From contig JAKFCY010000002.1 of assembly GCA_036676395.1 (NCBI GenBank), positions 256,001 to 320,000 of the forward strand: a stretch of DNA of 64,000 nucleotides, in the 5' to 3' direction. Made by a program: the position numbers and the translations under genes. The notes under the pieces are model-generated. The model was given only the letters and a program-made list of their open reading frames with translations. It was not told the DNA's origin and made no database searches. Positions 23,397-29,299 of this stretch are shown here, piece after piece (the first letter of the stretch is position 1; the number at the start of each line of letters is the position of its first letter). This DNA is from Bdellovibrio sp. GTDB lineage: Bacteria > Bdellovibrionota > Bdellovibrionia > Bdellovibrionales > Bdellovibrionaceae.

Positions 23397-24622
23397 ACGT
23401 TTACCTTTTTCGCATGATCTGGAAGATCTTTAAAAATCATAAAAATAATCGTTAATGCAAATAACGTGAAAGCACCAGCCAATAAAAATGGAGATCCTTT
23501 GAACGCGCTTTGTAGCAAAAAGCCGCCAATCGGTGGCCCAATGACTCGGCCTAACGCCGATAAACTTTGCGTGGTTCCCATAGCTAAGCCTTGTTCTTCT
23601 GGCGGAACAAGAAGTGAAACACTTCCCATAAAGGCAGGGTTTGTTAAGCCGTGACCTAACGATAACAGCGTCATCGTAATACCCATCGCCGGAATACTTG
23701 GTGCAAATGCAATTCCTGCAAGCCCTAAACCTAATAAAAGTAACCCCAGGCAAAGAACTTTCTTTTCGCCCACTTTAGGTAAAAGACGGCGCACTAAAAA
23801 GCCTTGCGTGAAAACAATGATTACGCCGATATAAGCAAATCCAAAACTGACTTCTTTGATGTTCCAGTTAAAAATTTCTTTCATGTACAGCACCAAAGAA
23901 GATTCCATTAAAGCCATCGCCAGTGTTGCTAGCGCAAAGCAGGTCATCAGGGGGCCAACAGTTTTGGTTTTAAAATAACGAGCTAAGTGTGATAGCTTTT
24001 TTTGTTTTTCAGCGCTGTTCTTAGCGCGTGTTTCTGGGCTGATAGATTCTTTTAAATTAAAGTAAGCAAAAATAAATGTAAATAAACACAATAAAGCTAC
24101 GCCGAAAGAAGAAAAGCCTGCGATAAAGCCCATGTCTGTAGACATTGTCTCGGCCCAAATAGTTAAGCCGCCACCGATCGCTGGTCCGAATAAAAATCCT
24201 AAACCAAAAGCAACGCCGATCACGGCCATACCTTTAGATCTATTTTCTGGAGTCGTCACATCTGAAACATAAGCCGATGCGGTTGAGATTGAAGCTCCGA
24301 AAAAACCGGTTAAAATACGCGCAACAAAAAGCATTTCTATTGAACGCGAATAGGCCAGTACCAAATAAGAAATCATTTCGCCCAAAAGGCAGTACATTAA
24401 AATAGGTCTGCGGCCGTAGCGATCTGATAGTTTTCCCCAAAACGGAGCAAAGATAAATTGCATCAATGAGTAAGACGCCATTAGTAAGCCCGCGATCCAA
24501 GGGGTTGCGCCGTAGTGAACACTTAAAAGCGGAATCACTGGAATGATCATTCCAAAACCTAAAAGGTAAATGAAAACTGTGAAAAATATTACGATAAGTG
24601 GTTTTGAATTTGGGTTGCTCAT
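23393..24622 (-). CDS. MFS transporter, TetA/DHA1-like
   Basis: Motif A GKLSDRYGRRP; GPAIGG; ~12 TM helices; start taken at MSNPNSKP. Confidence 0.9.
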   Translation of the reverse strand: MSNPNSKPLIVIFFTVFIYLLGFGMIIPVIPLLSVHYGATPWIAGLLMASYSLMQFIFAPFWGKLSDRYGRRPILMYCLLGEMISYLVLAYSRSIEMLFVARILTGFFGASISTASAYVSDVTTPENRSKGMAVIGVAFGLGFLFGPAIGGGLTIWAETMSTDMGFIAGFSSFGVALLCLFTFIFAYFNLKESISPETRAKNSAEKQKKLSHLARYFKTKTVGPLMTCFALATLAMALMESSLVLYMKEIFNWNIKEVSFGFAYIGVIIVFTQGFLVRRLLPKVGEKKVLCLGLLLLGLGLAGIAFAPSIPAMGITMTLLSLGHGLTNPAFMGSVSLLVPPEEQGLAMGTTQSLSALGRVIGPPIGGFLLQSAFKGSPFLLAGAFTLFALTIIFMIFKDLPDHAKKVNV

Positions 24623-24686
24623 ATTAGCCGATCTAGACCTTTGTCTTCTGCTTTTCATATATAAACTCGGTTACACTGGTGTGGCT

Positions 24687-25889
24687 ATGAAAAAAACATC
24701 AAATACACTGCGTTCTAAGATTAATTTTGTCGTCTTAACGATGACACTTTTTTCAACTGCTCAAAGCTGGGCGTTTTTTGATCCCTATCAGGTGTATCGC
24801 CAGCAAAGATTCGATTTGGCCGTAGATGCCCAATTTTATAAAACCACAGCCAATTTTGATTCAGGTGGTGAAAAAATCGACTTACCTTTTGAAAATAGCT
24901 TTCAAATTATCGATGTGAATCCCCAATTACGCTGGGGGATGTTTCGTGACCTTGGGGTTCGTTTAGGCACTAACATTGGTTCTTCTGAATCCGTTGACCC
25001 AATTAATACACGCAATAATTCTACCGTAAATCGTGTCGATGTCGGTGCCGATTACCAATTATTAAATTATGAATCTTTCCAAACGATCGTCGATTTTGAA
25101 TATTCTCATCCTATGGAAAAAGTCGACGTCGCTACTGATTCTTCATTAAACAGTAACGGGGCTTCTGAAATTAAACCAACGCTGATCATGAGAATGGATT
25201 TAGGAAGTTTTTATCCGTACGCTTATTTGGGCGCAAACATTCGCAATGAAGGCTTATCAACATTATTAACTTATGGTGTGGGCGGGGAATTTCGCTTTTC
25301 AGAATTAGGATTAGGCGCCGTTGTTGAAGGTTTTAGTTCTGTTAAAGATGATGAATTCACTAATTCAGCTTCACGCCGTGATTTAATCACGACACGAGTG
25401 AATGGTGGCAGTAAAAAGTTTTATTCAATTAATCCAAATGCATTAGCCGCAGAAGTATTTTTAAATTTTGCGATGACAGAATGGATTAAGTTTAAAGCTT
25501 ACGGTGGAGCGGATGTAACAGGGTCAAATACCTCACAAGGATTTTTTGTCGGTGGTGCGCTGACATTGACTCTTGATTATGGCAATGGCAGTGATGATCT
25601 TGAAGAACAACGTGTGATTCGTCGTTCGCAGCGCCCGGCAAAGAAAGTAAAAAAACCAGTCGATAACGGTTTCAAAGAAAGCACTGATGATGGCGTAGAT
25701 CAAAATTATTTTAAATCTGTAGATCCAAGTAATGATGATTACGTGCAACCCATTGAAGAAGAAGAACAGCAGGCAGTACCCCAAAATGGAACCAGTTCTA
25801 GTGTTAATCCAAGTACACAAGGCGATTTGGATCAACTCGGTTACCAAATCAAATTAAAGAAACTTAAAAAGAAAAAGAAAAATCAGTAG
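24687..25889 (+). CDS. Outer-membrane beta-barrel protein with acidic linker and poly-Lys C-terminal tail
   Basis: Signal peptide ending SWA; alternating aromatic beta-strands; C-terminus IKLKKLKKKKKNQ. Start moved to ATG 24687 because the longer ORF overlaps the divergent MFS start. Confidence 0.6.
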   Translation: MKKTSNTLRSKINFVVLTMTLFSTAQSWAFFDPYQVYRQQRFDLAVDAQFYKTTANFDSGGEKIDLPFENSFQIIDVNPQLRWGMFRDLGVRLGTNIGSSESVDPINTRNNSTVNRVDVGADYQLLNYESFQTIVDFEYSHPMEKVDVATDSSLNSNGASEIKPTLIMRMDLGSFYPYAYLGANIRNEGLSTLLTYGVGGEFRFSELGLGAVVEGFSSVKDDEFTNSASRRDLITTRVNGGSKKFYSINPNALAAEVFLNFAMTEWIKFKAYGGADVTGSNTSQGFFVGGALTLTLDYGNGSDDLEEQRVIRRSQRPAKKVKKPVDNGFKESTDDGVDQNYFKSVDPSNDDYVQPIEEEEQQAVPQNGTSSSVNPSTQGDLDQLGYQIKLKKLKKKKKNQ

Positions 25890-25940
25890 GACGCTTCGTG
25901 GCTATTTGCCACAGTAGCCTTTCTTATTACAATCATAACA

Positions 25941-25978
25941 AAATAAATAATGACAAGTTTTATAAGCCTTGATAGCTT
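25941..25978 (+). promoter_or_regulatory. Sigma70-type promoter with extended -10 and A-rich UP element
   Basis: ATGACA (25950-55)-N17-TAGCTT (25973-78), with TG at 25970-71 and AAATAAATA upstream. Confidence 0.55.
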
Positions 25979-26006
25979 GTCTCTATTCTATTGAAAGGAG
26001 AATCAC

Positions 26007-26090
26007 ATGATTACAAATATTAATACGCACGCCTTAGAGCAAACATTAGCCGTCGAAATGTCCGATTCTCCTATGGCACATCAATTCTAG
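26007..26090 (+). CDS. Small ORF (27 aa, MITNINTHALEQTLAVEMSDSPMAHQF)
   Basis: Perfect SD AAAGGAG 6 nt before the ATG; the SD can pair with GATTCTCCT at 26064-72. Confidence 0.4.
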   Translation: MITNINTHALEQTLAVEMSDSPMAHQF

Positions 26091-26487
26091 CAGTCTTGCC
26101 AGAATACAAAAGAGAATCCAAACAAATTTAAAGAATGAATCGCGATAATTAACATTATCGTCAAAGCTCATTGTGGCTTTTTCATTCTAAAATTTCAAAA
26201 AAACAGATCAATTATTTTTATTTAACCGCACTCGGAAACGAGGGCAAAAAGGATATTTTATGAAAAATGCTAAAAATTATTTAGCAGTGTACGAAAATTG
26301 GGAAAACTCAAACGCGGAGGAGCTTTGGCGCCTTTGGAAAAGCGTTCTAAAGTGTATTAGCCTGATCGCTTACTCATTTCACGCTATCGTGAAACTAGCG
26401 ATCGGGTTTTTATTAAATTCTAATTATTTAGTTAAGCACAACGAATTCGGAAAACTACCAGAAGAAATTTCTGGTAGTTTTTCTAAC

Positions 26488-26534
26488 AATCAGAACTGGT
26501 ATCGTAACTAATACCAGTTCTGATTTCTTTTTTT
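26488..26534 (+). terminator. Intrinsic terminator (15-bp perfect stem)
   Basis: AATCAGAACTGGTAT-CGTAACTA-ATACCAGTTCTGATT then TCTTTTTTT. Confidence 0.75.
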
Positions 26535-28078: not shown

Positions 28079-29299
28079 CTACTGTACTTTTTGCCGTTCG
28101 CCAAATAAAACCGTGCCGATTCTGATCCATGTCGCACCTTCTTTGAGGGCGACTTGATAATCGTGGCTTGTGCCCATTGAAAGTTCTTTGACTTGTAAGC
28201 GATCCGCCAAGTTTTTTAATTTTTTAAAATGAACTTGATTGTCTGCAGCGACGTTTTGCAACGGCGGCATGGTCATTAATCCCACAATTCTAACATTTGA
28301 AAGTTTTGTCAGTTTTTCCCATGCGGCAATAACGCTGGCTTCGTCAAAACCCGCCTTAGTAGCCTCGTTCGCAAGGTTGACCTGAATAAAAATCTTTTGC
28401 ACATGGTTGATTTCTGAAGCCTTTTTTGAAACTAATTCGGCTAACTCGAGCGAGTCTATGGCATGTAAATAGGCAAAATGATTTTTTAAAAATTTTATTT
28501 TGTTTTTTTGGATCGGGCCGATCAAGTGCCATTCTAAATTTAAATCTTTCAAGGCTTCGATTTTTTCTAACGCCTCTTGAATATAGTTTTCGCCGAAAGC
28601 GCGCTGACCTTGGCTGGCTAAATCGCGAATTTTTTCGATCGGCTGAAGTTTGCTGACCGCGAGCAAATTCTGACCAGAAGAAAGCTGAGCTTTGATTTGC
28701 GCCAAAGGTGATTTTTCAAAAGTCCAATTTTTACCAGCAAATAATTTTTCTAAAGCTGTCAAAGGCAAGCCCACAACGTTGTTGTAGTCACCCACAAATT
28801 TTTCCACAAATTTTCCGCCCAAACCTTGGATGGCGTAAGAGCCCGCTTTATCCATCGGTTCGCCGGTTTTGATGTAATCCCAGATGTCTTGATCAGTTAA
28901 ATTTTTAAAATAAACCTGCGATGTCTCAATATGAGAAATAATATGACCATTACTTTGGTCCAGAAGGATGATCGCGGTTTTTACTTCGTGCATTTTGCCT
29001 GAAAGTTTTTTCAAAGTATCAAACGCATCCTGTTCGTTTTCAGGTTTTCCGATCGCTAAATTTTCTAAACAAACCATCGTGTCTGAAGCCAAAATAATAC
29101 CGCCTGGATTTTTGTCAGGACATTGGTCTAGGCAAGCCAACGCTTTTCTTTTTGCGATGTCGATTATTTGCTCGTCTAAGCTTAGGTTTTCATTCGGGAT
29201 TTCCGATATAAAGACTGGGAATGAGACAAAATAATATCCGGCTTTTTTTAAGATTTCAGCGCGGCGTGGAGATTGCGAAGCTAGGACAATTTTTTTCAT
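28079..29299 (-). CDS. maf-yggS: Fusion of Maf/YhdE nucleotide pyrophosphatase (N-terminal) and YggS/PLP-binding protein (C-terminal)
   Basis: Maf motifs LASQSPRR, ASDT, GKP, DKAGSYAIQG, NVVGLP; YggS motifs AVSK, FGENYIQE, WHLIG, GLMTMP, LSMGTSHD, RIGTVLFG; one uninterrupted frame. Confidence 0.88.
   Translation of the reverse strand: MKKIVLASQSPRRAEILKKAGYYFVSFPVFISEIPNENLSLDEQIIDIAKRKALACLDQCPDKNPGGIILASDTMVCLENLAIGKPENEQDAFDTLKKLSGKMHEVKTAIILLDQSNGHIISHIETSQVYFKNLTDQDIWDYIKTGEPMDKAGSYAIQGLGGKFVEKFVGDYNNVVGLPLTALEKLFAGKNWTFEKSPLAQIKAQLSSGQNLLAVSKLQPIEKIRDLASQGQRAFGENYIQEALEKIEALKDLNLEWHLIGPIQKNKIKFLKNHFAYLHAIDSLELAELVSKKASEINHVQKIFIQVNLANEATKAGFDEASVIAAWEKLTKLSNVRIVGLMTMPPLQNVAADNQVHFKKLKNLADRLQVKELSMGTSHDYQVALKEGATWIRIGTVLFGERQKVQ

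Follow-up and report, generated by a model that had tools for sequence, protein, structure and literature searches.

The locus at positions 25950 to 26534 of the window, by which the whole 64-kb stretch of contig JAKFCY010000002.1 (assembly GCA_036676395.1) is meant, is probably a translationally self-locked bicistronic messenger RNA (mRNA) for small proteins, predicted to encode a leader peptide and an 83-amino acid (aa) protein of the Bd3714 family, and not a non-coding RNA (ncRNA). It forms an autonomous plus-strand unit of about 550 nucleotides (nt), most of which is filled by two open reading frames (ORFs) led by Shine-Dalgarno (SD) sequences; both were overlooked in an earlier note on this DNA, which had described the unit as an orphan structured RNA. 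What is new here is the conserved, unannotated upstream ORF (uORF) and the covarying helix, predicted to sequester its SD, that stand before the Bd3714 family. The parts of the unit are as follows.

25994..26004, plus strand: AAAGGAGAATC, which holds the SD of the uORF and supplies the 5' arm of the predicted locking helix
26007..26090, plus strand: uORF (ORF1) of 27 aa (MITNINTHALEQTLAVEMSDSPMAHQF) with stop TAG, preceded by AAAGGAGAATCAC
26064..26072, plus strand: anti-SD GATTCTCCT, which encodes Asp-Ser-Pro and forms the 3' arm of the helix, ending 15 nt before the uORF stop
26091..26259, plus strand: non-coding spacer of 169 nt, with a multibranch (26132-39/26181-88) that holds two inner hairpins, and a hairpin at 26228-26245 just 5' of the second SD (SD2)
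26260..26511, plus strand: ORF2, 83 aa, Bd3714-family small protein, preceded by AAAAAGGATATTTT
26488..26534, plus strand: intrinsic terminator from the terminator scan, with a 15-base pair (bp) stem at 26488-26525 followed by a T-run

ORF2 and the Bd3714 family

As judged from its substitution pattern, ORF2 is under purifying selection. The ratio of nonsynonymous to synonymous substitution rates (dN/dS) was 0.10-0.21 in divergent pairs of the seven-genome clade to which the locus belongs, and six of the seven differences between G000 and G018 were located at third codon positions; among the close genomes G016, G067 and G062, separated by 8-10 differences, the ratio was noisy (0.18-1.0). The earlier note had favored a standalone regulatory or sponge RNA and had itself held that protein-type conservation among homologues would speak against it, and conservation of this type was found, together with a uORF whose frame is kept through insertions and deletions (indels). 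Its fallback, a tightly repressed small-protein mRNA, essentially matches the evidence.

A single-sequence search recovered ORF2 in 7 of 52 genomes of its own genus, and its relatives in a set of 5.8 billion proteins fell into 17 clusters with 74-100% identity and in-frame indels, all of them unnamed or "hypothetical". Profile searching extended the family, leading from ORF2 to P0019, a 91-aa relative found among 1.84 billion representatives, then to G014 and G020, then to G005, G013, G093, G146 and G147, and finally to 62 of the 384 genomes of the order (58/181 in the taxonomic family, 26/44 in genus g18, which is Bdellovibrio by its cluster names, 19/51 in g1 and 3/7 in g30). The member in HD100 (G077, E 2.0e-18) is Bd3714 (NP_970427.1 / CAE81081.1), annotated as "hypothetical protein". 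ORF2 shows significant full-length profile similarity to the Bdellovibrio Bd3714 orthologues; as the ORF2 protein of the window was itself part of the profile, its own E-value is not independent. Homologues in other genera share 22-45% protein identity where the DNA is unalignable. The copy in G013 is 22-33% identical at the syntenic site, and its synteny, between a gene of the 439-aa type found upstream of the window's unit and divIVA, supports homology.

The predicted layout of the ORF2 protein consists of a charged N-terminal helix, a hydrophobic segment at residues 33-51 and a disordered tail. AlphaFold2 (AF2) modeled one helix over residues 2-62 followed by a disordered tail, with a predicted local distance difference test (pLDDT) score of 78.7 and a predicted template modeling (pTM) score of 0.42. 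The maximum Kyte-Doolittle value over 19 residues was 1.80, in a segment that contains Lys and His, and of 30 distinct proteins of the family, 23 reached a 19-residue score of at least 1.6, each time in a segment that includes a Lys; ORF2 is thus a probable membrane protein. The family had no match in Pfam, NCBIfam, PADLOC or PDB sequences, and ESM Atlas returned no usable match. Stray matches to HEPN_Apea (E 0.005, in 1 of 12 members), PEX11 and TrbF were below threshold and were taken as noise. A further weak profile match (E 3e-5) paired the C-terminal half of ORF2 with P0020, a protein of 640 aa with about eight tandem repeats of about 80 aa, which is possibly a chance match to a repetitive protein.

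Dissection of 31 modules, comprising 7 from the clade, 4 others from genus g1, 18 from Bdellovibrio and 2 from g30, revealed one common order in all of them: a strong SD with its uORF (25-49 aa) comes first, then a spacer (92-309 nt) and finally ORF2 (83-100 aa). The SD-like sequence lies 5-8 nt before the uORF ATG in 31/31 modules; in 30 of them a terminator-like hairpin lies no more than 82 nt from the stop of ORF2, in at least 9 it overlaps the end of ORF2, and a promoter-like pair of boxes stands at a constant distance from the SD across modules. This predicted layout was thus shown to be conserved in three or more genera of predatory bacteria, with one module copy per genome, and the window locus, single-copy in its own genome, possesses all of the parts (uORF, helix, spacer, ORF2 and terminator). 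The genomic position varies: the G013 module lies between the 439-aa-type gene and divIVA, the G005 module likewise follows a 439-aa-type gene, and the G020 and Bdellovibrio modules sit at other loci. In G012, which carries no module, the 439-aa-type gene and divIVA abut with 13 nt between them.

Leader uORF and spacer

The SD region of the uORF is invariant in all seven clade genomes, where the ATG and the TAG stop are also conserved. The frame is open in each of them, with lengths of 27, 27, 41, 31, 35, 31 and 32 aa, and therefore all uORF indels are multiples of three; the spacer, of 169, 183, 244, 232, 245, 191 and 235 nt, differs in length by amounts that are not multiples of three. By this comparison the uORF was shown to carry a coding signature, its frame being kept and that of the spacer not. 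Of the 52 genomes, the 7 that hold ORF2 each gave a single match to a uORF profile, and no other did. Selection on the peptide appears loose (dN/dS 0.28-1.1), with a middle part weakly constrained in sequence and length and a conserved N-terminus rich in M-I/M. The peptides contain no single-amino-acid runs and the uORF product is not hydrophobic (mean Kyte-Doolittle value -0.06). Across the 31 modules the peptide ends in Phe in 23, in Gln-Phe in 18 of these, and in IQS, ALC or VVR endings in the other 8. The ending CAATTCTAG (Gln-Phe-stop; 26085-26090) is conserved in nucleotides between genera whose uORFs are otherwise unalignable, and no conserved pairing partner of this stop region was found in the modules.

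These features bear on whether the leader peptide has a function of its own, as a partner or modulator of ORF2 or as a signal peptide, beyond being a cis-acting ORF. Such a function would account for its strict co-occurrence with ORF2, for the conserved N-terminus, for the Phe or Gln-Phe end that recurs across genera while the remainder has diverged, and for an CAATTCTAG ending that no conserved pairing explains at the RNA level. It is nevertheless unlikely, given that the middle is unconstrained, that 8 of the 31 peptides end otherwise, that the remaining conserved residues follow from the anti-SD, and that no genes for modification or export are adjacent.

In the spacer, where SD2 is the AAGGA at 26249-53, the stems are kept within the clade with some compensatory changes (helices 7-10). 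The strain represented in the metatranscriptomes described below carries an insertion of 14 nt right after the uORF stop (26090/26091), which is consistent with a non-coding spacer. A different insertion of 14 nt is present in G018 before the CGATAAT hairpin (L034, about 1375-1388). Two candidate elements of the spacer were discarded: a sigma-28 promoter at the invariant CGATAA was ruled out by a distance to the TAAA box that varies between genomes, CGATAA being a hairpin arm, and a CsrA-type GGA hairpin before SD2 was ruled out by a GGA that is not conserved in G016-type sequences.

The predicted SD1/anti-SD locking helix

The SD of the uORF (SD1) and the anti-SD inside the uORF form a 9-bp perfect complement in the window, which is kept in 7/7 clade genomes. 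A helix of 7-10 bp between the uORF SD and a segment in the 3' part of the uORF can be drawn in 31/31 modules, with the anti-SD ending 12-47 nt before the uORF stop (12 or 15 nt in 26 of the modules). The arms differ between groups as follows.

This clade: SD arm AGGAGAAUC(G), anti-SD arm (C)GAUUCUCCU
G014: SD arm AAGGAGAAUA, anti-SD arm UAUUCUCCUU
G013: SD arm GGAGGACAUC, anti-SD arm GAUGUCCUUC
Bdellovibrio: SD arm GGAGGCCAU(C), anti-SD arm (G)RUGGCCUCY
G146: SD arm GGAGGCUAUC, anti-SD arm GAUGGCCUCC
G147: SD arm GGAGGCUACG, anti-SD arm CGUGGCCUCU

The pairs at the variable positions, counted in 23 distinct contexts, were the following.

Position GGAG+4: A-U 6, G-C 16
Position GGAG+5: A-U 7, C-G 15
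Position GGAG+6: U-A or U-G 7, C-G 15
Position GGAG+7: C-G 4, A-U 19

This count was anchored on GGAG; in a family-wide MAFFT alignment the anti-SDs of the two main groups had fallen into separate columns. In register, 95% of the cells of the helix are paired, compared to 43-50% when the arms are slid against each other. The residues encoded by the anti-SD differ, being Asp-Ser-Pro here and Val/Met-Ala-Ser in Bdellovibrio; as the encoded residues change while the pairing stays, it is the RNA pairing that is conserved and not the peptide. The comparison thus showed that the predicted SD1/anti-SD helix is maintained by compensatory changes. Partition-function folding predicted an unpaired probability for SD1 of 0.01-0.07 in six of the seven clade orthologues and of 0.43 in G018.

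At the second cistron, SD2 (GAGGAAGCU) pairs with AGCUUCCUC at positions +122 to +125 of ORF2, at about codons 41-44, in 20/20 modules of Bdellovibrio and g30, and this ORF-embedded pairing occurs in 0/11 modules of genus g1. Within the clade no conserved partner of SD2 was found in the uORF or the spacer. A 9-bp pairing of SD2 with uORF codons 15-19, seen in G000 and G018, was set aside, as it is not kept in the other five clade genomes.

Transcript and expression

Contigs from four soil metatranscriptome runs of four studies (X17-X20), derived from a close relative, cover 26004-26442 and begin at 26004-26016. In these runs the upstream gene (25400-25889) has no contig cover, and a piece of divIVA is present in X17 only. 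One contig of 432 nt runs from the uORF through the spacer into ORF2, most of which it covers; all three of its differences in ORF2 are at third codon positions and read as synonymous. The 3' hairpins lie outside the contig cover, which is a weak hint only, as contigs cannot show ends or absence.

Expression in HD100 was taken from Table S1 of PMC3627812, in which Bd3714 has 20.9 and 4644 reads per kilobase per million mapped reads (RPKM; 21 and 1390 reads) in two columns that we take as attack phase and 3-h growth phase from the sheet name and from the values of dnaA (4.1 vs 224). With this inferred column order, Bd3714 would be strongly growth-phase specific, at an RPKM about 20-fold above that of dnaA in the growth-phase column of the same table. 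Its neighbors Bd3712 (LysR) and Bd3715 are also growth-phase genes in these data, and none of the eight attack-phase small RNAs (sRNAs) listed in Table 2 of PMC3627812 maps to the Bd3714 locus. A full-text literature search found no mention of Bd3714. In HD100 (locus L092 of G077) the module stands between the LysR gene Bd3712 (11-670) and the convergent Bd3715 of 192 aa (1413-1991); being expressed in the growth phase next to the module, this LysR protein is a candidate regulator of it.

A membrane-damaging ORF2 product or leader, encoded by an mRNA that the SD-sequestering fold keeps inert and that an antisense or overlapping RNA antitoxin counteracts, would make the locus resemble a type I toxin-antitoxin system. 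In aapA3, as described (PMC6733600), the SD is likewise hidden by an ORF-embedded anti-SD, the mRNA of the module folds very strongly with SD1 predicted to be sequestered, and ORF2 has a hydrophobic helix; the unit is moreover compact and autonomous, occupies varied loci between genomes, evolves fast (the 22-33% identity at the syntenic site) and could be overlapped at its 3' end by the convergent divIVA transcript. We nevertheless consider this quite unlikely: with 83-100 aa and long hydrophilic N- and C-terminal parts, ORF2 is above the size of typical toxins (typically under 60 aa), only one copy is present per genome, no antisense promoter stands out and matches on the minus strand are at chance, another gene separates the unit from divIVA in G018 and G052, and PADLOC gave no match. 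The HD100 mRNA is also highly induced in the growth phase along with its neighbors, according to the table cited above (PMC3627812).

Fold strength and structure conservation

The stretch 25975-26534 (560 nt, plus strand) has a predicted minimum free energy (MFE) of -154.9 kcal/mol, compared to -106.5 +/- 4.8 kcal/mol in 100 dinucleotide shuffles (z = -10.06, with 0/100 shuffles as good), which places the folding far beyond chance, as the earlier note had expected of such a comparison. The opposite strand of the same stretch gave z = -5.6. In a comparison with 227 natural windows of equal length (560 nt) from the 64-kb stretch, the locus had a GC-corrected residual of -3.2 standard deviations, and the extremes were windows that overlap the locus; in raw energy, 16 of the 227 fold at least as well, because the GC content of the locus is only 34%. 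Other modules gave z values of -8.4, -6.4 and -6.0, and 11 modules including that of HD100 ranged from -3.4 to -8.6. Every stem listed in the earlier note is present; those beyond the parts given above are the following.

25996-26004 / 26064-72, plus strand: helix AGGAGAATC / GATTCTCCT, from the inverted-repeat check
26132-39 / 26181-88, plus strand: multibranch closing stem AGAATGAA / TTCATTCT, enclosing the CGATAAT/ATTATCG and AAAGC/GCTTT hairpins
26231-42, plus strand: CTCG-GAAA-CGAG hairpin, confirmed
26268-86, plus strand: TGCTAAA/TTTAGCA stem, confirmed
26361-26406, plus strand: nested hairpin CCTGATCGCT...AGCGATCGGG, inside the ORF2 coding sequence
26446-26486, plus strand: long hairpin, inside the ORF2 coding sequence

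The absence of a recognizable RNA family also held: a scan of the whole 64-kb window gave no Rfam match at gathering score, and at E <= 1 only three sub-threshold matches to the locus, all on the 3' hairpins, the best with 19-24 bits against thresholds of 55-80. Thus, of the earlier description, an autonomous, folded unit of about 550 nt that has no Rfam family and is present in RNA libraries stands, and its interpretation as a non-coding, regulatory or sponge RNA does not.

RNAalifold predicted 123 pairs in the alignment of the seven clade genomes, with 95.5% of cells paired compared to 37-48% when slid. Helices 14, 15 and 17, which lie inside ORF2, are kept in the clade, the last one with compensatory changes. 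Third codon positions of ORF2 were variable in 20/55 cases when paired and in 20/28 when unpaired (p = 0.005, with G000 as reference), and the effect had the same direction for all seven references (p 0.005 to 0.27); as this test used single-sequence MFE structures, it is less circular than the alignment-based one. Paired third positions being less variable, the coding sequence of ORF2 is under an overlaid constraint at the RNA level. A pairing of a TCATAA block with the start of ORF2 (helix 2 of the alignment fold) was set aside, the block being upstream of the likely transcription start. Further DNA copies were sought in metagenome contigs and none was found: of 82 protein-pattern matches 0 were confirmed, and a degenerate 26-nt DNA pattern had 0 matches.

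So much folding raises the question of a dual-function RNA, coding and at the same time acting in trans by base pairing or as a sponge for proteins or RNAs. Its size and number of hairpins are comparable to those of RNAIII/hld-like RNAs, with an ORF of about 27 aa near the 5' end; folding exceeds the apparent need of an mRNA and is conserved across the family, and RNA contigs lie on the unit and not on the upstream gene in four runs. This alternative is highly improbable, as selection clearly acts at the protein level on ORF2, which takes up 45% of the RNA, as distant modules have different hairpins except for the SD helix, and as a recurring loop motif or seed is not apparent, no dedicated target search having been made. 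A purely non-coding large structured RNA with accidental ORFs, which the exceptional folding, the missing Rfam family and the orphan position might suggest, is hardly credible in view of an ORF2 with dN/dS of 0.10-0.21 and third-position bias, of homologous proteins (22-45% identity) in other genera with unalignable DNA, of a maintained uORF frame and of a correctly spaced SD before both ATGs in all modules.

Promoter, terminator and neighboring genes

25950..25978, plus strand: candidate promoter, -35 ATGACA at 25950-55, 17-nt spacer, -10 TAGCTT at 25973-78, predicted start about 25985
25952..25981, no strand assigned: inverted repeat GACAAGTT / AACTTGTC, which extends over the promoter boxes

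The promoter ATGACA-N17-TAGCTT proposed in the earlier note was omitted by a generic scan, which gave TTGCCA-N16-TACAAT at 25906-25933 instead, and promoter-like matches in the region were at chance (5 vs 5.2 +/- 2.3 in shuffles), as were those of the minus strand. The earlier proposal fits better, because its boxes recur in distant relatives and the RNA contigs start at 26004-26016. The -35 GACA and a GATA/TAG -10 are kept in 7/7 clade genomes, analogous boxes at equal distance from the SD are present in G014 and G020 ((T)AGACA-N17-GATAGT/CATAGT), and the counterpart in the Bdellovibrio group, at the same distance, is GTTTAC-N17-GATATT. The inverted repeat over the boxes, possibly an operator, or, given a transcription start more to the 5' side, a hairpin at the 5' end, is kept in six of the seven clade genomes, with three pairs broken in G041, and is absent upstream of the G014 and G020 modules. 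Just 5' of the -35, the block TTCTTATTACAATCATAACAAAATAAAT (25919-25949) has 25 of 33 columns invariant in the seven clade genomes (76%, compared to 68% in ORF2) and is a candidate UP element or regulator site. At the other end, the 5' arm of the terminator encodes the final codons of ORF2, whose stop codon lies in the loop.

The unit is convergent with divIVA (Pfam DivIVA, E 2.4e-32), and the ORF listing agrees with the earlier note that no same-strand gene follows. An extra minus-strand gene stands between module and divIVA in G018 (221 aa; L034, 1774-2439) and in G052 (187 aa; L038, 1775-2338), with an N-terminus that looks lipoprotein-like by eye; the 3' hairpins of the module are therefore not simply the divIVA terminator. 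The upstream gene (439 aa; 24570-25889, plus strand) had no Pfam or NCBIfam match, carries a C-terminal tail rich in Lys (KLKKLKKKKKNQ), is conserved throughout the genus and has a small terminator hairpin of its own at 25900-25919. Elsewhere in the window, the 406-aa ORF at 28079-29299 (minus strand), downstream of proC, looks by eye like a fusion in which a Maf-type N-terminal half is joined to a YggS-type C-terminal half that would bind pyridoxal phosphate (PLP).

Proposed mechanism and its weight

In the proposed mechanism, transcription from the promoter at about 25950-25978 would yield the leader ORF, the structured spacer and ORF2, and would end at the terminator that overlaps the ORF2 stop. 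The SD1/anti-SD helix would close upon transcription of the anti-SD, so that leader initiation could take place only co-transcriptionally or after the helix has melted. In 26 of the 31 modules the anti-SD ends 12 or 15 nt upstream of the stop, so that it would be covered by a ribosome at the last codons of the leader; this ribosome would leave SD1 open for the next one, and masking of this kind would give switch-like leader translation. Leader translation and folding would then set the stability and the translatability of the ORF2 mRNA. This coupling of leader to ORF2 is the weakest part of the model, because no conserved structural link from leader translation to SD2 was found in the clade.

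Several points weigh against the self-locked bicistronic mRNA. Translation of both ORFs is predicted from sequence, and Bd3714 was not found in the supplement of one proteome paper, one PDF of which was unreadable. The amino acid constraint on the uORF is weak (the dN/dS of 0.28-1.1), the residues that are most conserved in it coincide with the anti-SD, and the peptide itself may therefore be unimportant. Covariation over the whole clade structure was modest, with compensatory changes in 13 pairs compared to a shuffle value of 9.7, the figure of 13 being attained by 18 of 500 shuffles; in addition, the clade structure was derived from the same seven-sequence alignment on which it was scored. 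The register of the locking helix was picked by a best-helix search, which favors the in-register figure; the frequencies with which shuffles matched the helix of single modules ranged from 0 to 0.31 (G020 0.31, G005 0.28, G115 and G052 0.12), and the few lineages correspond to roughly four or more independent compensatory events and not to 23. SD2 is not consistently sequestered in the clade (unpaired probability 0.28-0.88), where no conserved structure that links uORF translation to SD2 or ORF2 was found. The RNA contigs come from a related strain and possibly from DNA-containing libraries, and show neither strand, ends nor levels. Hydrophobicity of the transmembrane (TM) kind is confined to 23 of the 30 family proteins, the HD100-type protein reaching just 1.02.

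A wider proposal, which we regard as unlikely, is that the module is a family-wide translational switch of predatory bacteria, in which a leader that locks its own ribosome-binding site (RBS) would open in an all-or-none manner and time or limit the synthesis of a small membrane protein. In the intraperiplasmic growth phase that protein would be either required or toxic, and the switch would amount to a hok/mok-like or "ribosome-availability sensor" device that works without an antisense RNA partner.

The case has some general bearing. An extreme folding z-score and the lack of an annotated gene had pointed to a new class of ncRNA, a likely mis-call, where the unit is a small-protein operon, and operons of this kind are mishandled by gene callers and sRNA screens alike. 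Research on Bdellovibrio gains a post-transcriptional control element in growth-phase expression that can be tested by mutation, and research on small proteins and type I toxins gains a two-cistron variant of control by an ORF-embedded anti-SD.

Comparison with known systems

The nearest relatives are the Bd3714 locus and orthologues such as Bdt_3603, which share the protein layout of ORF2. Like the locus described here, the Bd3714 locus has an unannotated uORF (25 aa) with an SD/anti-SD helix, a spacer (229 nt) and a terminator; it differs in the protein, about 25% identical to ORF2, and in its neighbors, which are LysR Bd3712 and Bd3715 instead of the 439-aa gene and divIVA. The Bdellovibrio group also departs from the clade of the present locus in that SD2, too, has an ORF-embedded anti-SD.

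Among leader-peptide (uORF) controlled operons are tnaC-tnaA, secM-secA, mifM-yidC2 and speFL-speF. They resemble the present unit in having a short ORF 100-250 nt upstream on the same transcript, a conserved C-terminal end of the peptide and a structured spacer. The short upstream ORF on one transcript is indicated here by the kept frame, the SD in 31/31 modules and the bridging contig, its translation being predicted. Unlike these operons, the module family has no conserved family-wide arrest motif, and in the clade no alternative structure was found that would couple the leader to SD2 or a terminator. What is conserved in the modules is instead a leader predicted to hide its own SD, which leader-peptide operons are not known to do.

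RNAIII/hld of Staphylococcus aureus is a dual-function RNA of about 500 nt with many hairpins and an ORF of about 26 aa near its 5' end. The unit is similar in the size of a multi-hairpin RNA and in its short 5' ORF, and is unlike it in having a second, longer ORF under protein-level selection and no evident seed or loop motif.

In hok/Sok, the mok leader ORF, upstream or overlapping, is needed for expression of hok. In aapA3/IsoA3 of Helicobacter pylori, the SD is hidden by an anti-SD within the ORF, as described in PMC6733600. Both type I systems are like the module family in an RBS hidden by an anti-SD of the coding region and in a highly folded small-protein mRNA, whereas the family differs from type I toxin mRNAs in an ORF2 of 83-100 aa, in ORFs that lie 92-309 nt apart and do not overlap, in its single chromosomal copy and in the growth-phase induction seen in HD100. 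Type I toxin mRNAs and leader-peptide operons offer the closest mechanistic parallels, by analogy and not as classes to which the locus is assigned.

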